Shown here one piece after another: positions 14,668 to 21,216 of a stretch of 64,000 nt of DNA. The position numbers and the translations under genes were made by a program. The notes below the pieces were generated by a model. It was not told where the DNA came from and did no database searches. It was given only the letters and a program-made list of their open reading frames with translations. Origin of the DNA: a phage; sequence record PZ452579.1; one strand, given 5' to 3'. The first letter of the stretch is position 1; each line of letters starts with the position of its first letter.

Positions 14668-15216
14668 TTAACGAGCCCATTTGATGATTTCTGTAATCAA
14701 ATCATTACGTTCGCTTGCATTAAATCCTATAACTTTGTTAGCACCATCATGATTAAGTAATTGATACGTTTGGATTTTGTTATGAATTGCAAACTCTTCA
14801 AAATGTGAAATGACTGTATTAAAACCGAATGAAGACAAAGTAATAAGGTCGTCTTCAAAACTTTCAGTCATTTCGTTACGTGTTAAAATAATTGTGAACA
14901 CATCATGGTTTTGGCAAAGACGAATATAATCCTGTTCATAAACGTCAAGAACCGAGTCCGCATCTTGTCGAATACGTCCATAAACCCAGTTACTAATATA
15001 TCCACGGTCTAACAGATAAATCTTAGTAGGGTCTAAATAATTCAACATCGTTTCGAAACAGCCAACTTCGTTTCGAGACTTAACATCGAAACGTCCATCA
15101 ACTGTTCGTTTAGGGAAATCAATCTTTACATATCTTTCACTAATTTCCATTATGTCATTAATGAAAGTTGTTTTACCAGCATTATCCGGGCCATCTACTA
15201 AAATAATTTTAGCCAT
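14668..15216 (-). CDS. P-loop kinase (dNK/dNMP-kinase or small sugar-kinase-like)
   Basis: 182 aa; Walker A GPDNAGKTT and LLDRGY (DR motif); occupies part of T4 beta-glucosyltransferase slot. Confidence 0.6.
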   Translation of the reverse strand: MAKIILVDGPDNAGKTTFINDIMEISERYVKIDFPKRTVDGRFDVKSRNEVGCFETMLNYLDPTKIYLLDRGYISNWVYGRIRQDADSVLDVYEQDYIRLCQNHDVFTIILTRNEMTESFEDDLITLSSFGFNTVISHFEEFAIHNKIQTYQLLNHDGANKVIGFNASERNDLITEIIKWAR

Positions 15217-15217
15217 T

Positions 15218-16117
15218 TTATTCCTCGATTACGACATCTTCGTATTTAGGTATATTATACGGCGAAGAAATTAAAGCATTAAAGTAGATGAACTCACCAA
15301 GACCTGGATGGAATACTTCTTCAGGATTTTCGAAATATTGAATCTTCGGACGTCCTTTAAGAATTTGATAGTACTCAGTTTTAGTCGGTTTAAAAATTCG
15401 AATCAGCGCTTCTTCAGGATACTTATTTCTGTCGAAGCTATTATTTGGATCGGTTATATAAAGCGGTTGACCTAATTGAATTGCACATTCAACCACTTGT
15501 TCAAAACGATAGCATGGGTCACTAATTCGAAATGGATGAAAAATACCATCTAGATGAATAGGAGCCAAATCACCTACAAGACGCTGCATGATGGAAGGAC
15601 GTATAACTTTCTGGGTTATGATAATCTTATTACCATCGGCACCAGCGTTAACCAGCACTTCCTTTTGACGTTTATTCAACACAGTTGTTTGGATTGAACG
15701 ATTAACCGACAACATGTCGGTTTTTAAGAATTCGTCAATATAAAAACGTGGTTTATTAGGGTCTGCGGTGATATTGAAATTGAATTCTACATCAAAAGCG
15801 CCGTCATATCCAGTGATATCTGTGATTAGAAAATCACAATCATAATAAGCAATTAATGAATCAACCACAAATTCATTTTCAGACCAGAAATATTTACGAG
15901 TGTTATACGCGTTATCTTTATACCATAATGGAACAAACTTAAATTCTGGGAAAAGACGTTCACATTCTTTAATATCAGATGCATTACGTGGATATGTAAT
16001 CACATCACCTGGATTAGCACGGTGCAAATGAAGTTGGAAGTTGCCATCCTTAAGGATAGCATACTGTCCAGTTTCATAAGACCGCATACTCAAGATAGGT
16101 ACGCGGAAAATAGCCAT
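15218..16117 (-). CDS. Hypothetical protein at bgt locus (candidate hmC sugar transferase)
   Basis: 299-aa ORF, tightly coupled to flanking genes; no recognisable motif; function inferred only from position. Confidence 0.5.
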   Translation of the reverse strand: MAIFRVPILSMRSYETGQYAILKDGNFQLHLHRANPGDVITYPRNASDIKECERLFPEFKFVPLWYKDNAYNTRKYFWSENEFVVDSLIAYYDCDFLITDITGYDGAFDVEFNFNITADPNKPRFYIDEFLKTDMLSVNRSIQTTVLNKRQKEVLVNAGADGNKIIITQKVIRPSIMQRLVGDLAPIHLDGIFHPFRISDPCYRFEQVVECAIQLGQPLYITDPNNSFDRNKYPEEALIRIFKPTKTEYYQILKGRPKIQYFENPEEVFHPGLGEFIYFNALISSPYNIPKYEDVVIEE

Positions 16118-16833
16118 TAGTCAAGGAATCCTTTAACATAATCAAAATCACGTTCAAACACATGGGCACTTACCATGGTATGAGTATAATCACCAACTTC
16201 TACACCACATTCGTTAGCGATATAATGAAGTAATTTTCCTTGGAGATAAAAATCCAACTGCATAACAACAGCACAGTTCTGAGAACGCATATGACAGTGG
16301 GTATAAAGCTTACCATCGCGAATATAATAAGTCACTGAGTCAGTACATGGATATTCAAGTGTTTCGTCCGAATCAAGCAAAGCCTGATCAGAACTTTCTA
16401 GAATTTGGAACACAACTCTTCGAGAGTTAGGCTTCTCTTTAAGTTCTTTTAGAAGAGCTGGTAATTGGGCTGCAATGCGAGGACCATAGAAAGTGTTGAA
16501 GTTCGCAGGCAAAGCATCTGATTTTGGTTTAGAAATAAATTTAGCGACATTAGGATATGCCTTAAACGCTTCTTCTGCATCAGTACCACCAGAAATCATA
16601 AATTTCCAGAAGTCTTCGGCATATTCATAAGAGATGCGGTTAATACGTGGGTCGGTCATTTTGAATGATGATGGAGTGTCAACAACTACTGTCATAGACC
16701 CAATTTCATTACAACGTCCAATACGAGAATCAGTTACGAATTCCGGGTTTTCTAAAATTTCACGATTGACTGCTTTAAATGCGGCTTGAAAATCTGCGGC
16801 TTTGATATATTTCATTGTGTTATGTTTTCCCAT
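16117..16833 (-). CDS. 42: Thymidylate-synthase-fold pyrimidine hydroxymethylase (gene 42-like dCMP hydroxymethylase)
   Basis: 238 aa; catalytic Cys in YPCTDS, RSQN...QLDFY segment alignable to T4 gp42 RSND...FRNDYA with Asp retained at the cytosine-specificity position; divergent from T4. Confidence 0.75.
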   Translation of the reverse strand: MGKHNTMKYIKAADFQAAFKAVNREILENPEFVTDSRIGRCNEIGSMTVVVDTPSSFKMTDPRINRISYEYAEDFWKFMISGGTDAEEAFKAYPNVAKFISKPKSDALPANFNTFYGPRIAAQLPALLKELKEKPNSRRVVFQILESSDQALLDSDETLEYPCTDSVTYYIRDGKLYTHCHMRSQNCAVVMQLDFYLQGKLLHYIANECGVEVGDYTHTMVSAHVFERDFDYVKGFLD

Positions 16834-16874: not shown

Positions 16875-17114
16875 TTATTTGAATTTCTTGGCAATGTTGA
16901 TATAACGTAAAGCTTCAGCATCGATACTTCCAAGAACACTATGAAGAAATGCATCAGCGTAATATTCTAGTTGAACAGGTTCTTTAATCACTTTAGCCGC
17001 TTTGGTTTCAAACAGGCCCATAAGGGCCTTTTTAAGAATTTGTTCGTTAGTGTTCAGTTTCATAGTCAAAATCTCTTCATTAAGTTGGTGGTTAAAAGTT
17101 TTTCTAGAAATCAT
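16875..17114 (-). CDS. Hypothetical soluble protein (imm position, not Imm-like)
   Basis: 79 aa, no TM segment. Confidence 0.45.
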   Translation of the reverse strand: MISRKTFNHQLNEEILTMKLNTNEQILKKALMGLFETKAAKVIKEPVQLEYYADAFLHSVLGSIDAEALRYINIAKKFK

Positions 17115-18271
17115 TCTGGGTACCTCAAAGCGTCGTCAGAGTTAGTTATATCAATAATAGATATAGAATTTTCTGATAACCCGTTTTTAGATAACTGACG
17201 TTTATAATATCTTTCACAATATGTACACGTCGTCCCGCAGATTTCATTAGCACAATCGAAATCTGGATGTCTGAACCACCTTTTTTCTAAAAAGCCATCT
17301 AACAAAGAGGTTTCAATATTTACTGTATGTGAAAACTCGGTCTCATTTTCAAGAGTGAAAATAGTCTCTAAAGGCTTCCACAGTTCTAACAAATTACCTT
17401 CAAACTTTTCAGAAGCGTATGCTTCAAGAACTTTCAAAATGTAGTCTGTGCTACCTGTACGTCCTGAAACTTTGAATTGAGTGATACCGATATCATTATA
17501 AAGTTTCAAATCTTGAGGACGAACAAAACGAGTTCTCAACCAGTTAAATGGGTCTGTATCACGAGCTTTAATACAGTGCTGCATTGGATATCCGTTTAAG
17601 GATTTAGCATCATCAGCTGTAACATCAGTACTATGGAAAATATAGCAAGAGTCACGATAGCTACAATGTGTTGTATACCCTTTACCAGCATTAGAACAGA
17701 ACTCATTTACAAGAACTTCAAATATTATATTGTTCTTATTGCAAAACTCTGCTGCACGCTTCAGGAAAGAAACTGAACGGTTCTTATGAATTCCGCAACA
17801 GACCTTTTTGATATTATATTGGTCATGCAAGTATTTGATTTGAGTTACAGCATCGACATGTAGAATTGTTGAAACTTCAATCTCAATGTCTTTATTGACT
17901 TCACGAACAATTTCCATAACAACAGGGTTAGCGATAGTAATACGCCATACGCCTATTGACCAAAGATACTGAACATAATCCTGAATAGCTTTCTTCTTCC
18001 ACTCAACTAGTTCTCTTTTTGAACCAGGATTTATCGTGTTGAGCGTATAGTTAAAGCAAATACCTAATTCGTTACAACGTTTAACGTAATCTTCTAACAT
18101 CTTTTTGTCAACGTCAGGAAGCCTAAAATCAGGTCTGGCTGCTACAAAAGCCATTTCTCTTGTAGAGCCGTATACTTCGTTTATCAAGCTATTAGGATAA
18201 GTTTTATTGAGCTCTACGATTTTATCAAGAAGAGCTAAATCAAAATTCGTTCCGATTTTAAAAGTATTCAT
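17111..18271 (-). CDS. Hypothetical Cys-rich protein within sugar cassette (candidate transferase)
   Basis: About 386 aa from MNTFKIG...; C-terminal CANEICGTTCTYC cluster; no confident family. Confidence 0.5.
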   Translation of the reverse strand: MNTFKIGTNFDLALLDKIVELNKTYPNSLINEVYGSTREMAFVAARPDFRLPDVDKKMLEDYVKRCNELGICFNYTLNTINPGSKRELVEWKKKAIQDYVQYLWSIGVWRITIANPVVMEIVREVNKDIEIEVSTILHVDAVTQIKYLHDQYNIKKVCCGIHKNRSVSFLKRAAEFCNKNNIIFEVLVNEFCSNAGKGYTTHCSYRDSCYIFHSTDVTADDAKSLNGYPMQHCIKARDTDPFNWLRTRFVRPQDLKLYNDIGITQFKVSGRTGSTDYILKVLEAYASEKFEGNLLELWKPLETIFTLENETEFSHTVNIETSLLDGFLEKRWFRHPDFDCANEICGTTCTYCERYYKRQLSKNGLSENSISIIDITNSDDALRYPE

Positions 18272-18327
18272 TTTTTTGCATCTCACGTTAATTGATGCGA
18301 TGGTTTTTGCAGGTCTTACTTAAATTA

Positions 18328-18714
18328 TTATAGATTCGGTTTATATGATTTAAATGTTTCGAATTCGCCTTTATTCATAAGAGCTTTGAATTCGTCAGGA
18401 CGCATAGCTTTGTCGTCGATAATCCAATCATATACTGGTTTATGTGTTAGCAAATTATGGTACTTTAAGCCAATGTTTGCCAAGTTCTGGATCAGACTTG
18501 GGAGAATGTCAATTGCTATACGACCAGGACCTACTGACTTCATACCGCGAGCAGTGTAAAGCGTTATGGTATGCCCTGCATCATACAGGGCATTAATGGC
18601 AGACACCATTTCGACGTCTGGTTTGAAGTTCACGTAATCACGATTGTTATTCCACTCTGTTATACAATCATCGACATCAAAACAAAGATTAAGCATGTTT
18701 TCTACACGGTGCAT
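18328..18714 (-). CDS. HAD-superfamily phosphatase (small, C0-type)
   Basis: FDVDDCIT (motif I), YTARG (motif II), KP...IIDDK (motifs III/IV); start ATG shares a base with upstream stop (TAATG). Confidence 0.7.
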   Translation of the reverse strand: MHRVENMLNLCFDVDDCITEWNNNRDYVNFKPDVEMVSAINALYDAGHTITLYTARGMKSVGPGRIAIDILPSLIQNLANIGLKYHNLLTHKPVYDWIIDDKAMRPDEFKALMNKGEFETFKSYKPNL

Positions 18715-20399
18715 TAGATTCGTTCCCATTGATGAGTGATATCGCCACCGATTGGACGATAGGAAACACCAGTTTCTTTATCAGTTAGTACCCATTTACC
18801 AGGATTTTTTGTAATCAGAGTAGCCGTTACAGGTTCTGCTACGTCATAACTAATAGAGCCGTCTTGAAGTACACGGCCCATATTACGTAATTGCTTAGTC
18901 AGAAGTTCCATACCTTTATAATATGCGGCTACCGCTTTAAGTGGATTATTCTTGAAATAACCACCTAATGCAATCCAGATAATTGCCACTGCCAAATGAT
19001 GATACTCGTTAAACGAACTCATCTTTCCATATTTGTAAACTAATGGATTGATGTTAATAGTCACATTACAAGTTGTTTCATCAATAGTAAACTGTCCCCA
19101 GGTCGGATTAGCGTTGAATTCATCATAACCTGAAACAGCATAAAGCACTTTAGCTTCATCGTACAATTTTGGCCCGTAAATCTTGGTTTCGCCAAAATAT
19201 CCACGAGGGTCGATAAACTTGACTTCGCCGTTATCAGTAATCATAGTATTACTGAAGTTCGGGTCACCATGAATAACAGAGTACTGTCCCTGAGAACGGT
19301 TATGATAACGAATAAGGTGTTCTAAAGCTTGTTTCAGCATTGGCTTCAGACGTCCAATCTTAGTGTAGTTCACATGTGTGATTTTACCAAATGAATCAAT
19401 CAATGGTTGAATGCTTTCACAACGATCAATAACTTTCGTATAGAATTCTTTAGTGAAATCACGACGAACAGTTTCAGGACTTACAAAATAAGTGTCTGTG
19501 CTGAATTTCAGTGCATCTAAAATTGCATCAACAATTTGTGGACGAGCAAGACTTGATTTGGATTTAATATATTCAAATGCCGGCTTACCTTTAATGCGTT
19601 CCATTTCAAAGTTATTTTCATTAACAGAAACTAACTGAGGAACTGAATCTGATTTCACTTTAAGATACCATGAAATCTCATCTTTCTGAAGAGCTCGGCC
19701 CTGTTCGGTTAATGCGAATTTAGTTACAGTTTCTTCACCAATTTCAACTGCATTAAAACTACGATTAAGTTCACGAACTTCATGAGCTTTTTCAAGTTTA
19801 GGCATATCACCTAAATCAATTAGATTCATAAGCTCTGATTTATTGAATGCACTGCCGTAAAGGAATTCTACGAAATCACGTCCTTTGCAGTATTCGTGAA
19901 TTTCCTCATCAGTAGAACCCATGTAGAATTCCCAGTCTTTGAACTGATAAATTCCTACAACATTACCACCTGTTGAACCTACGTTAGTGATATTTTCACC
20001 GTCGAAATTATATCGACATTCGTCACCCTTAACATAGATTGCGTTAACATTCCAAGACCATGAACCAAAATCAGGAATAATATCACACCAGTTAACAATT
20101 ACATTATGGCCGTCTAAATCTTTGTGTAATTTAGCAAGAGCATAAGCAGAACCATACGCTTCATCAACTGTACGAATAGTCACATTGAACCCTTCTTGCT
20201 CACAATAAGCTCGAACAGTTTCAGCAAATTTTGAATGAACTACTACAATAATTTCATCTGCGCCAAGGTCAGAATAAATTGTATACAAATTGCTCAGAAT
20301 AGTGTCTTGTTTATAGTTCACAAGAACTTTTGGAATATGGTGAGTAATTGGATATAAACGAGTTGCCAGTCCAGCACCAAGAATAACAGCTTTTTTCAT
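18714..20399 (-). CDS. Bifunctional sugar-1-phosphate nucleotidyltransferase / sugar kinase
   Basis: 561 aa; N-terminal ILGAGLATRL (GxGxR NTase motif), C-terminal IHGDPNFSNTMITDNGEVKFIDPRGYFG (APH/choline-kinase-like catalytic loop). Confidence 0.75.
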   Translation of the reverse strand: MKKAVILGAGLATRLYPITHHIPKVLVNYKQDTILSNLYTIYSDLGADEIIVVVHSKFAETVRAYCEQEGFNVTIRTVDEAYGSAYALAKLHKDLDGHNVIVNWCDIIPDFGSWSWNVNAIYVKGDECRYNFDGENITNVGSTGGNVVGIYQFKDWEFYMGSTDEEIHEYCKGRDFVEFLYGSAFNKSELMNLIDLGDMPKLEKAHEVRELNRSFNAVEIGEETVTKFALTEQGRALQKDEISWYLKVKSDSVPQLVSVNENNFEMERIKGKPAFEYIKSKSSLARPQIVDAILDALKFSTDTYFVSPETVRRDFTKEFYTKVIDRCESIQPLIDSFGKITHVNYTKIGRLKPMLKQALEHLIRYHNRSQGQYSVIHGDPNFSNTMITDNGEVKFIDPRGYFGETKIYGPKLYDEAKVLYAVSGYDEFNANPTWGQFTIDETTCNVTININPLVYKYGKMSSFNEYHHLAVAIIWIALGGYFKNNPLKAVAAYYKGMELLTKQLRNMGRVLQDGSISYDVAEPVTATLITKNPGKWVLTDKETGVSYRPIGGDITHQWERI

Positions 20400-20453: not shown

Positions 20454-20584
20454 TCATACTTTGCTTGTAGTCCAATCATAATCCATCCAATTACAAGTGT
20501 TGGAATCATTACTGGAGCCGTTAAGCTCCAGTAGATAGTCATGACAAGCATCAATAGTAAAAGTCCTATTGTTATTGCTTTCAT
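20441..20584 (-). CDS. 47-aa hydrophobic peptide (single TM)
   Basis: Manual translation MKAITIGLLLLMLVMTIYWSLTAPVMIPTLVIGWIMIGLQAKYECFN; ATG overlaps SIS gene stop (ATGA); below track size cut-off. Confidence 0.35.
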   Translation of the reverse strand: MKAITIGLLLLMLVMTIYWSLTAPVMIPTLVIGWIMIGLQAKYECFN

Positions 20585-21216
20585 TGTTCGCCTCGTAACA
20601 TGGCACCTAGTGCACCGCCTGGATGGAACTTAAGGAAATCATTAGAGGTAAATCCGCGTTCAGACGAAAGGTTGATAGCGAACGTATCGATAAGCGCTAA
20701 CAACAATGTAGTAGACATTGTCGGAGCTAAAGAGTTCTCGTCAACTTCTACCGCGATACCGGTACAGAACGTATAATCAAAAAGAGCTTCGTATTCTTGT
20801 GGAATGTCAGGGTTACAATGTAACAGAATCTGTTTAACCTGAGGACGAATCATACGAAGATGTTTAGCAACACCTATCATTTCTTCAGTCTTACCAGAAC
20901 GACTGATGTGAATCAACACATCATTAGGTGCAATAAATCCTGCGTCACCATGAGAATAATGCCCAGTGTTCAAATACATGCTAGGAATACCTAGTGAAGC
21001 AAAAGTCTCGGAAGCTTTAGTTGCGATATTAGCATTCTTACCAACACCTGTAATAATTACACGACTTTCATAATTACTCAGTCCAGGGCGACGAAGAGTT
21101 TCAAGAATAGCATTATATCGGGCAGGGTTTTGACTAATTACTTTAGCCATAGTGGCAAGAGATGAAGCTTGTTTTACGATTGCGTCAATAGCGATAGTGA
21201 TTGGTGTAGTTTTCAT
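20581..21216 (-). CDS. SIS-domain phosphosugar isomerase (KdsD/GutQ-like arabinose-5-phosphate isomerase, SIS domain only)
   Basis: 211 aa; ITGVGKNANIATK ... HGDAG ... SRSGKTEE pattern matching KdsD SIS domain rather than GmhA. Confidence 0.75.
   Translation of the reverse strand: MKTTPITIAIDAIVKQASSLATMAKVISQNPARYNAILETLRRPGLSNYESRVIITGVGKNANIATKASETFASLGIPSMYLNTGHYSHGDAGFIAPNDVLIHISRSGKTEEMIGVAKHLRMIRPQVKQILLHCNPDIPQEYEALFDYTFCTGIAVEVDENSLAPTMSTTLLLALIDTFAINLSSERGFTSNDFLKFHPGGALGAMLRGEQ

Follow-up and report, generated by a model that had tools for sequence, protein, structure and literature searches.

What does a large cysteine-rich protein do in the middle of a phage cassette for DNA modification? 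The question is raised by a gene on the minus strand, at positions 17111..18271 of the window, by which we mean the whole stretch of 64,000 nucleotides of phage DNA analysed here (PZ452579.1). A preliminary description had reported at these coordinates a 391-aa protein of unknown fold. The ORF is real, but the coordinates correspond to 386 aa, read from the ATG at 18271 to the stop at 17111-17113, and the 391-aa form requires an in-frame GTG at 18286. The ATG (MNTFK...) is the start in the homologues, and the Bas46 annotation of the gene is the 1161-nt version. The gene, a homologue of RB69 gp50 and bas46_0144, has the lowest dN in the cassette (0.09-0.15), with saturated synonymous sites, showing that it is under strong purifying selection.

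The neighbouring genes, all on the minus strand, outline a pathway known from RB69. At lower coordinates lie a Tmk-like nucleotide kinase (14668..15216; RB69 gp45 homologue, PHROG 761; PMC13326640 Table 1), a candidate for DNA arabinosyltransferase 1 of 299 aa (15218..16117; RB69 gp46:47 homologue; PMC13326640 Table 1), and a thymidylate-synthase (TS) homologue, the 5-hydroxy-dCMP (5hodCMP) synthase (16117..16833; RB69 gp48 homologue), which matches Pfam Thymidylat_synt and carries the RSQN (D169N) signature. At higher coordinates are a HAD phosphatase (18328..18729; RB69 gp51/AfhF analogue, PHROG 1238; PMC13326640), a bifunctional sugar kinase/nucleotidyltransferase (18714..20399; RB69 gp52:53/AfhE analogue, with Pfam NTP_transferase and weak kinase matches; PMC13326640), and an arabinose-5-phosphate isomerase (20581..21216; RB69 gp55 homologue, Pfam SIS, PHROG 5670; PMC13326640). 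Although our gene had been placed between a gene-42-like gene and the HAD phosphatase, the former is not directly adjacent: a conserved 79-aa ORF (16875..17114; PHROG 8601) intervenes, its start overlapping the stop of our gene by 4 nt. In RB69-type DNA the modified base is arabinosyl-5-hydroxycytosine, gp48 is a flavin- and O2-dependent 5hodCMP synthase whose oxygen comes from 18O2, the route from ribulose-5-P to UDP-arabinofuranose has been published, and T4-type phages also encode a dCTPase (RB69p028; Table 1), all according to PMC13326640.

The fold of the protein turned out to be a known one. Residues 94-286 of the 386 aa (99-291 of the 391-aa form; 17414..17992, minus strand) match Pfam Peptidase_U32 (PF01136) with a score of 42.2 bits where the cutoff is 22.4 (E 7.5e-11, spanning 2-192 of the 233 profile positions), and this stretch forms the core of a TIM barrel. 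A direct sequence search of the PDB with the protein returned nothing relevant; the U32-type TIM barrel was established from the secondary structure of a predicted model and a fold search with it, in which U32 was the best structural match. The structure prediction that had been suggested as a check thus refutes the unknown fold. The earlier remark that no glycosyltransferase motif is obvious agrees with our finding of no glycosyltransferase family match in Pfam, and the proposal that the protein might itself be the transferase falls with it. We rejected a DNA glycosyltransferase because neither a GT-A/GT-B fold nor a glycosyltransferase profile was found, a TIM barrel was present instead, and the glycosyltransferase of the cassette is the ORF at 15218-16117; the similarity in size to T4 alpha-gt (about 400 aa), noted previously, is irrelevant. 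The remaining suggestion, a metal-dependent epimerase or oxidoreductase or something new, went in the right direction as regards an oxidoreductase or a new enzyme, while its sugar-modifying part is improbable. The protein is a virus-specific member of the U32 family, a putative Fe-S enzyme within a DNA-modification cassette. Outside phage collections, a search of 185,579 species genomes found its clade in no more than 11, mostly MAG bins, and the named taxa among them belong mainly to gut or other anaerobe-associated groups.

The cysteines support a metal-binding role. The protein contains 13 Cys and 8 His, and 10 of the Cys are invariant in 37 homologues (47-87% identity), far more than expected by chance at a mean column identity of 53%. 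Four of them form a core cluster, C192-X10-C203-X5-C209-X23-C233 (17573..17698, minus strand), which is a predicted [4Fe-4S] site. The canonical U32 [4Fe-4S] motif is CX6CX15CX3/4C, or CX6CX16CX38C in UbiU (PMC6747719), and its ligands 1-3 in RlhA, TrhP and UbiU correspond to C192, C209 and C233 when aligned by MAFFT with bridging sequences. This alignment, in which the NEFC motif pairs with the GALC motif of the family, replaced one by hhalign that had matched C203 to canonical ligand 1. No Cys of the protein aligns with the fourth canonical ligand; C203, which is invariant and lies inside a family-specific insertion of 11 residues, could substitute for it. The C-terminal Cys cluster noticed previously (CANEICGTTCTYC) is indeed present, at residues 340-352 (17216..17254, minus strand), and reads CX4CX3CX2C (C340, C345, C349 and C352). 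This motif occurs in 118 of 120 close homologues and in 56 of 129 distant representatives, and the E. coli U32 paralogues have no Cys at the aligned positions. We predict a second metal or Fe-S site here.

What these genes accompany in other viruses proved informative. Neighbours were counted by lineage, in flanks of 6-8 kb around the U32 gene of 32 non-T4 viral lineages, and two glycosyltransferase families bridged by GT-kinase fusion proteins were counted separately. The most constant partners of U32 were gp46:47-like glycosyltransferases (20/32), followed by Tmk-like kinases (16/32), with sugar-activation genes in 7-8 of the 32 lineages and DAHP-synthase genes, with or without a fused chorismate mutase (CM), in six; the fusion matches DAHP_synth_1 at 2.5e-36 and CM_2 at 7.9e-18. 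Other neighbours included dUTPase, dUTPase_2, dCMP deaminase, NT5C and dNK. About nine lineages combine U32 with a glycosyltransferase and mostly a kinase or a dUTPase-type enzyme, in flanks that lack SIS, NTP-transferase and HAD genes, and in another five lineages U32 is accompanied by a methyltransferase and by no sugar genes. Single loci add an NMP-kinase-methyltransferase fusion one gene upstream of U32 and, at L010, a U32 gene directly before a TAGT-type DNA glycosyltransferase; radical-SAM/SPASM genes lie near U32 at three metagenomic loci. A TS homologue of the 5hodCMP-synthase type was found within these flanks in none of the 32 lineages. The single TS-like match near a non-T4 U32 gene, at locus L030, was rejected as a 5hodCMP synthase, since it carries the ThyA-type QRSGD...FN signature and not the N169 signature.

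The converse combination also exists. Phage records with the TS homologue include 57 from Acinetobacter and 20 from Rhizobium. The U32 matches, 222 records that all share at least 80% identity with the window protein, include neither genus among their listed names, and seven names outside that list contribute at most three U32 records each. Acinetobacter and Rhizobium phages therefore appear to keep the 5hodCMP synthase without U32, and Acinetobacter phage DLP1 has the cassette minus exactly the U32 module. JS98, a Dhakavirus with an E. coli host, is without U32 as well. Since Dhakaviruses infect E. coli without it, U32 is not required in every facultatively anaerobic host.

A link to prephenate comes from the sister genera. 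In LC53 and Entb_45 the start of a genuine CM gene, which matches Pfam CM_2 at E 1.7e-11 and 2.4e-10 respectively, lies 4 nt inside the U32 stop, so that CM is translationally coupled to the U32 gene in these genera, whose CMs score 40.9-44.6 bits against a CM_2 cutoff of 27. Among 50,697 phage records we found 51 CM matches, all in T4-like phages that infect Enterobacterales or Shewanella; under most of them is a gene annotated as thymidylate synthase/dCMP hydroxymethylase or peptidase, and under about ten only hypothetical proteins. The mapped loci have the order U32, CM, TS homologue, and a by-eye reading of the alignment gave no equivalent of E. coli CM Arg51 in the phage proteins. An HMM search of all six frames of the 64 kb found no CM in the window, so the strongest contextual clue is missing from this phage. 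The slot held by CM in the sister genera is filled here by the 79-aa ORF, which we rejected as a CM, even a degenerate one: no CM_2 match appears even at an E threshold of 10, its hhalign probability with the profile of the phage CMs is 8%, and in Tegunavirus-type loci U32, the 79-aa ORF and CM are consecutive, so both genes stand side by side. Because this Mosigvirus lacks a phage CM, it would depend on the host enzymes PheA and TyrA for prephenate.

Taken together, the neighbours of U32 genes in unrelated phages suggest cytosine hydroxylation without oxygen. U32 proteins have been linked to hydroxylations that need no O2 and take the oxygen from prephenate, and direct hydroxylase activity has been reconstituted in vitro for none of them (PMC10990095). 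For the window protein we infer Fe-S binding, prephenate use, a substrate and an anaerobic role, and we lean, by no wide measure, towards an O2-independent pyrimidine C5 hydroxylase. Specifically, the enzyme would hydroxylate C5 of a pyrimidine in a prephenate-dependent reaction that needs no O2; the pyrimidine would here be cytosine, with dCMP the likeliest form and cytosine already in DNA a less likely one, and the adjacent glycosyltransferase would transfer arabinose to the resulting 5-hydroxycytosine. RB69-type phages would then use the U32 enzyme alongside the flavin/O2-dependent 5hodCMP synthase, and modified DNA could be made over the whole oxygen range that an enterobacterial host meets. 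A wider proposal, which we put forward tentatively and with less confidence, is that the large and essentially virus-specific U32 clade as a whole consists of O2-independent, prephenate-driven C5 hydroxylases of deoxypyrimidine nucleotides, on which a class of O-glycosylated, and possibly O-methylated, hydroxypyrimidine DNA in phages of anaerobes would be founded, with CM or the DAHP-synthase-CM fusion supplying the donor in some of them. U32 as a phage DNA hydroxylase has not been proposed in the accessible literature, which does not include He et al. 2026 and Mahler et al. 2025. Literature searches for U32 together with phage DNA modification, and for the 'Afh' gene names, gave nothing relevant, and the family of the U32 gene goes unmentioned in the Thanatos, RB69-2018 and Durham-collection papers.

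Other explanations keep the chemistry and change the substrate. The U32 enzyme might hydroxylate cytosines already incorporated in phage DNA, which we consider unlikely. Both of the nucleic-acid U32 enzymes that have been characterised have polynucleotide substrates (PMC5727448, PMC6599085); moreover RlhA, one of the two, gives the best profile alignment, and the glycosyltransferase that follows U32 at L010 belongs to a family named after its association with TET dioxygenases (PMC13390438). However the U32 neighbours are mostly nucleotide-pool enzymes, and the window protein has no recognisable nucleic-acid-binding domain. As in T4, the dCTPase of T4-type phages degrades dCTP, and with this nucleotide destroyed, replication without a pre-made pool of 5hodCTP would be difficult. 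If RNA were the target, as it is for the characterised nucleic-acid relatives including the best E. coli match, RlhA, the protein would form ho5U34 in tRNA or ho5C in rRNA, of the host or the phage, and retune translation with no relation to DNA modification; T4-like phages do encode tRNAs. This seems distinctly improbable, since the U32 gene sits in DNA-modification or nucleotide cassettes in the T4-like loci and in most of the 32 lineages, the window protein lacks the C-terminal domains of TrhP (453 aa) and RlhA (653 aa), and E. coli already has both enzymes.

A role in sugar metabolism, with the U32 protein modifying a pentose or a nucleotide sugar, would suit the position of the gene, with the HAD phosphatase on one side and the base-modifying genes on the other, the frequency of TIM barrels among sugar-phosphate enzymes, and the existing labels 'sugar or heterocycle reductase' (NAR 2026 Table 1) and 'putative enzyme involved in UDP-arabinose biosynthesis' (Bas46). 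Yet the published route from ribulose-5-P to UDP-arabinofuranose has no step left for U32, the sugar genes are present and U32 is absent in JS98 and in Acinetobacter phages of the DLP1 type, the nine or so glycosyltransferase-paired lineages without SIS, NTP-transferase and HAD genes and the five methyltransferase-paired ones show the reverse, and the CM link has no sugar logic. We therefore regard this role as improbable, and the protein is probably not a sugar-modifying enzyme. The C-terminal motif had been said not to fit the radical-SAM CxxxCxxC signature; CGTTCTYC is literally CX3CX2C, and it even fits CX3CX(aromatic)C exactly, which, with the radical-SAM/SPASM genes near U32 at the three metagenomic loci, would favour a radical-SAM-type enzyme. 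Such an enzyme is nevertheless highly improbable, as a search up to E 0.1 gave no PF04055 match, the structure resembles U32 most closely and not a radical-SAM barrel, and the motif lies at the extreme C-terminus, outside the barrel, with the invariant C340 four residues upstream of C345 (counting the residues between them), a fourth Cys that would leave no free iron for SAM. A collagenase-like 'peptidase U32' is what the Pfam and PHROG families, many GenBank annotations and most database records would have us expect, but this is a historical label: those members studied in E. coli are Fe-S proteins that hydroxylations require (PMC6747719, PMC10990095), and neither the 10 invariant Cys nor the gene context suggests proteolysis, so that a protease is barely credible.

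If the preferred reading, an O2-independent hydroxylase, is correct, gut coliphages and many uncultivated phages, mainly from anaerobe-associated samples, could make hydroxypyrimidine-based hypermodified DNA without O2, where the only characterised hydroxylase, which needs O2, cannot work. The results suggest that the phage could disguise its DNA in the oxygen-free gut by adding a hydroxyl group to cytosine independently of O2, which would bear on phage therapy and on the evasion of restriction and CRISPR in the anoxic gut. Prephenate-dependent U32 hydroxylation would extend from RNA and quinones to DNA precursors, and viruses would be hijacking the shikimate pathway, through CM and DAHP synthase, for an oxygen-atom donor. 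A single-subunit U32 enzyme acting on dCMP would also be a much easier in vitro system than UbiU/V, RlhA or TrhP, because its substrate would be small and soluble rather than a lipid (UbiU/V) or a large RNA (RlhA, TrhP).

Among known systems the closest is RlhA (YdcP), which depends on prephenate and iron and makes 5-hydroxycytidine at C2501 of E. coli 23S rRNA (PMC5727448). The two proteins have the U32 TIM-barrel domain in common (best of the E. coli paralogues in profile alignment, probability 81%, with hhalign covering RlhA residues 46-258 only), cluster ligands 1-3 are conserved in the window protein, and the product base, 5-hydroxycytosine, would be the same. However RlhA has 653 aa, a second U32-like region, C-terminal domains and a CX6CX15CX3C motif, and acts on one rRNA residue, whereas the window protein has 386 aa, one U32 domain, CX10CX5CX23C plus the C-terminal CX4CX3CX2C, and a context pointing towards deoxynucleotides or DNA; the NCBIfam RlhA model gave no match to it at E up to 1. 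Mk0906, a U32 'peptidase' of Methanopyrus kandleri (PDB 5D88), is 14% identical, with 247 residues and no C-terminal Cys module. The 5hodCMP synthases RB69 gp48, DLP3 gp80 and HY126 share the cassette and the product proposed for U32, but their fold is unrelated and they depend on flavin and O2 (PMC13326640); they occur in phages of obligate aerobes, apparently without U32, and are absent from the flanks of the 32 other U32 lineages.

The proposed phage pair resembles the E. coli pairs UbiI/H/F versus UbiU/V and TrhO versus TrhP. In tRNA, ho5U34 is made by the O2-dependent TrhO and by the prephenate-dependent U32 protein TrhP (PMC6599085), so that two non-homologous enzymes serve one pyrimidine C5 hydroxylation, as proposed for the phage. 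In the phage a flavin-binding TS homologue takes the place of the rhodanese-type TrhO as the O2-dependent partner, tRNA is not the substrate, and the profile alignment to TrhP (YegQ) is weak (hhalign probability 9%), PF01136 being the only family found in the window protein. A UbiU/UbiV equivalog was rejected: the protein reaches 18.5 bits with the NCBIfam UbiU model against a cutoff of 440, hhalign gives probabilities of 4.5% for UbiU and 0.4% for UbiV, and no second U32 or SCP2 gene was found in the window cassette. Still, UbiU-UbiV are U32 Fe-S proteins for which 18O labelling identified prephenate as the oxygen donor, with a flavin/O2 system as their aerobic counterpart (PMC6747719, PMC10990095). 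They form a heterodimer with one cluster per subunit and act on a lipid, whereas the phage has only one such gene, whose product might hold a second cluster in the same chain through the extra four-Cys motif.

The phage from which the window comes is T4-like and belongs to the genus Mosigvirus (RB69 group). Over the 6.7 kb around the gene studied here, identity is 98.4% with Escherichia phage ChristianSchoenbein/Bas46 and with some 150 further Mosigvirus records. The cassette reads Tmk-like kinase, 299-aa ORF, thymidylate-synthase (TS) homologue (16117-16833, minus strand), 79-aa ORF (16875-17114, minus strand; PHROG 8601), the U32 gene, HAD phosphatase, nucleotidyltransferase/kinase, SIS isomerase and DNA polymerase, and since this is the order of RB69 genes 45 to 55, the U32 ORF is the homologue of RB69p050 (gp50). 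Its stop codon (17111-17113, minus strand) overlaps the ATG of the 79-aa ORF (ATGA). The preliminary description combined a length of 391 aa with coordinates 17111-18271: that length needs the GTG at 18286, the first possible start, whereas the coordinates fit the ATG at 18271 and a protein of 386 aa. Because all homologues start at the ATG-equivalent position and Bas46 annotates a 1161-nt form, residues are numbered from the ATG. A 50-aa ORF (20454-20606, minus strand) between the kinase/nucleotidyltransferase and SIS isomerase genes has as counterparts the small annotated gene bas46_0147 in Bas46 and a transmembrane-segment ORF in phage LC53. Several genera, but not the window, have a 212-aa ORF labelled 'putative endonuclease' inserted between their HAD and U32 genes (L001:4352-4990, also L017, L022, L023 and L025), which looks like a mobile homing-endonuclease insertion.

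The fold, at first taken to be unknown, is a familiar one: the protein matches Pfam Peptidase_U32 (PF01136) with 42.2 bits (gathering score 22.4), belongs to PHROGs family 5757 ('peptidase'), and is modelled by AlphaFold2 (37 homologues as input, mean pLDDT 90.2) as a beta/alpha barrel of eight strands, after which comes a helical C-terminal region. Neither a glycosyltransferase nor a radical-SAM profile matched it in the Pfam search. Among profile alignments of the E. coli U32 paralogues to the phage family, RlhA was far the best, at 81% probability across 203 columns; the other three reached 9%, 4.5% and 0.4%. The phage-type clade is large and uncharacterised, with 465 clusters at E up to 1e-30 in a search of 1.84 billion representatives.

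Four canonical cysteines bind a [4Fe-4S] cluster in UbiU, and their CX6CX15CX3/4C pattern recurs among U32 subfamilies (Pelosi et al., PMC6747719). The phage protein has 13 cysteines, ten of them (C158, C177, C192, C203, C209, C233, C340, C345, C349 and C352) invariant across 37 homologues that are 47-87% identical to it (mean column identity 53%). When the family was aligned to E. coli RlhA, TrhP and UbiU via bridging sequences, C192 fell on canonical ligand 1 (RlhA C169, TrhP C170, UbiU C169), C209 on ligand 2 and C233 on ligand 3, the fourth canonical cysteine had no counterpart in this alignment, and the invariant C203 lay between ligands 1 and 2, within an insertion of 11 residues. The spacing in the phage clade is therefore a variant, CX10CX5CX23C in place of the canonical pattern. 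The C-terminal cluster noticed previously, CANEICGTTCTYC, is confirmed at residues 340-352; this CX4CX3CX2C motif is an added feature that nearly all close homologues share (118 of 120), as do 56 of the 129 representatives that are more distant.

The U32 proteins studied so far are required for O2-independent hydroxylations (PMC10990095; PMC5727448; PMC6599085) in which prephenate donates the oxygen, as 18O labelling showed for ubiquinone (PMC10990095): UbiU/V act on ubiquinone precursors, while TrhP and RlhA are needed for tRNA ho5U34 and 23S rRNA 5-hydroxycytidine 2501, respectively (PMC5727448; PMC6599085). The RB69 base was revised in 2026 from hydroxymethylcytosine to arabinosylated 5-hydroxycytosine, and gp48, the TS homologue, makes 5-hydroxy-dCMP with flavin and with oxygen from O2, as established by 18O2 labelling (PMC13326640). 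That study proposes a D169N signature as diagnostic of such 5hodCMP synthases and calls the RlhA and TrhP pathways unrelated in its discussion. The TS homologue in the window carries this signature (HMRSQN), although many GenBank records still say dCMP hydroxymethylase. The cassette thus pairs an O2-dependent maker of 5-hydroxycytosine with a gene, two genes off, of a family whose E. coli members serve O2-independent hydroxylation and, in the case of RlhA, the formation of 5-hydroxycytosine in RNA. No published link between U32 proteins and phage DNA modification was found in the literature open to searching, and priority may lie elsewhere.

The two genes are distributed differently. TS-type synthases occur in 374 phage records, including 57 from Acinetobacter and 20 from Rhizobium phages, and U32 in 222, with 80% or higher identity to the window protein in every case. 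Enterobacterales account for all ten host names listed for U32, seven unlisted names have at most three records each, and Shewanella and Pectobacterium phages are among the sampled rows. Acinetobacter phage DLP1 has SIS, kinase/transferase, HAD, TS, glycosyltransferase and kinase genes and lacks exactly the U32 module. Both of these host genera, Acinetobacter and Rhizobium, consist of obligate aerobes, in which the O2-dependent enzyme would be enough. Dhakaviruses such as JS98, which infect E. coli yet have no U32, are an exception. The events behind this pattern are few and phylogenetically clustered, hence no P value is given. In the JS98 locus (L061, 6073-7699) the Tmk-like kinase gene has shifted to a place between the HAD and TS-homologue genes, and U32, CM and the SIS isomerase are absent. 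Beyond phage collections, a search of 185,579 species genomes turned up the clade in only 11, mostly metagenome-assembled bins and one isolate scaffold, including Erysipelotrichales, Oscillospiraceae, Romboutsia, Tannerella, Phocaeicola and Gastranaerophilaceae. These named taxa are mainly gut or other anaerobe-associated groups. Against ten T4-like genera, with synonymous sites saturated (pS 0.72-0.83), dN was lowest in the cassette for U32 (0.09-0.15; TS homologue 0.14-0.25, glycosyltransferase 0.25-0.48), which indicates a constrained, functional enzyme.

Chorismate mutase (CM) produces prephenate. Both Serratia phage LC53 (Winklervirus) and Enterobacter phage Entb_45 (Kanagawavirus) have a genuine AroQ CM gene whose start lies 4 nt inside the stop codon of U32 (CM_2 E 1.7e-11 and 2.4e-10, both above threshold). 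Searching 50,697 phage records with this CM by tblastn returned 51, all from T4-like phages with Enterobacterales or Shewanella as hosts; for most rows the gene listed at the match is a thymidylate-synthase/dCMP-hydroxymethylase or a peptidase, and for about ten only hypothetical proteins are listed. In mapped loci CM lies between U32 and the TS homologue, and Tegunavirus-type loci have U32, an orf79 homologue and CM in a row. The phage CM genes placed between U32 and the TS homologue include L001:6158-6502 and L002:6158-6397, with 49 other phage records and none from Mosigvirus; in the nine phage CMs that were aligned, the residue corresponding to Arg51 of E. coli CM is always I, V or L, a difference that bears on catalytic competence. 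No CM was detectable anywhere in the 64-kb window, so prephenate would depend on host PheA and TyrA, which weakens the case for this phage, not for the family. The 79-aa ORF, which fills the CM slot in the window, was rejected as a CM (no CM_2 hit; hhalign probability 8%). Across four homologues (46-55% identity) 30 of its positions are invariant, and its N-terminal M..INH.LNE motif also opens the N-terminal extension of the LC53 CM, suggesting an old orf79-CM fusion or deletion.

We gathered U32 homologues of 40-58% identity from a protein homologue search, IMG/VR viral contigs (47 loci), eight metagenomic contigs and species genomes (11 loci), and then predicted and clustered the ORFs lying up to 6-8 kb from each U32 gene; the counts that follow refer to these flanks. 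Among the 32 non-T4 lineages (U32 less than 75% identical to other lineages), 20 have a glycosyltransferase like RB69 gp46:47, sharing the N-terminal motif IPI.S.R.YETG.Y....DGN, 16 a Tmk-like kinase, sometimes fused to the glycosyltransferase, 8 an AfhE-like kinase/nucleotidyltransferase, 8 a HAD-like phosphatase, 7 a SIS isomerase, 6 a DAHP synthase, alone or fused to CM (DAHP_synth_1 E 2.5e-36, CM_2 E 7.9e-18), 5 a methyltransferase-GP88-unknown cassette, and 3-7 each a dUTPase, dUTPase_2 or dCMP deaminase. A 5hodCMP synthase homologue was absent from the flanks of all 32. The RB69 cassette has been repeatedly rebuilt around U32 without a TS-type hydroxylase, and this pattern speaks most strongly for U32 as the supplier of the hydroxyl group.

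These loci vary in several ways. The only TS-like neighbour, in L030 (24% identity), is of the ThyA type (QRSGD...FN, not RSQN) and was rejected as a 5hodCMP synthase. Glycosyltransferase and kinase, separate adjacent genes in RB69, form one polypeptide in L037:1243-3060 (605 aa), L046, L052 and L058. DAHP-synthase-CM fusions with CM at the C-terminus (L042:4321-5376, L053:7079-8197, L039, L041, L043, L066), like DAHP synthase alone (L009, L028), stand beside U32 in contigs of uncultivated phages; the fusions look like viral capture of shikimate entry and prephenate formation. The recurring cassette of a GP88-family protein, class I SAM methyltransferase, ~267-aa protein and U32 (L007/L008/L064, L070-L073; for example L073:2996-7089, where methyltransferase and a guanylate-kinase-like NMP kinase, E 8e-20, form one fusion protein) suggests, by analogy with tRNA mo5U/cmo5U, O-methylated hydroxypyrimidine nucleotides. 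L007, a phage-like contig, has two U32 paralogues (365 and 377 aa) 4 kb apart (L007:8001-9098 and L007:13227-14360), which could form a heterodimer like UbiU/UbiV, with radical-SAM/SPASM, NT5C, dNK and nucleoside deoxyribosyltransferase genes between or beside them.

Other roles were considered. A place in sugar synthesis is what existing labels imply, the Bas46 record giving 'putative enzyme involved in UDP-arabinose biosynthesis' and a table in PMC13326640, where alone gp50 appears, 'sugar or heterocycle reductase'; about nine lineages speak against it, since their flanks hold a glycosyltransferase and, in most, also a kinase or dUTPase-type enzyme, but none of the genes for sugar activation. 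Hydroxylation could also act after replication, on DNA instead of dCMP, but the nucleotide-pool neighbours and the L073 kinase-methyltransferase fusion, one gene upstream of U32 in the same cassette, favour a mononucleotide. RNA hydroxylation and proteolysis were likewise weighed. Radical-SAM chemistry, for which the preliminary description saw no signature, does have one in its favour, since CGTTCTYC fits CX3CX2C; because the motif is C-terminal, a fourth cysteine lies upstream and no radical-SAM profile matches, an auxiliary metal or Fe-S site is more probable here than a cluster that binds SAM.

For the proposed hydroxylation of dCMP by U32 we infer a mechanism modelled on the one that Pelosi, Pierrel and colleagues put forward (PMC10990095). 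Two-electron oxidation of the pyrimidine ring would come first, with electrons leaving via the Fe-S cluster(s), and prephenate decarboxylation would then deliver hydroxide to C5, yielding 5-hydroxy-dCMP, phenylpyruvate and CO2. Phage dNMP kinase and host NDP kinase would produce the triphosphate, the polymerase would incorporate it, and glycosyltransferases would then arabinosylate the 5-hydroxycytosine. If true, the proposal, which is directly testable, could give the U32 field a soluble-substrate enzyme. The C-terminal four-cysteine module may provide a second cluster, as UbiV does for UbiU.
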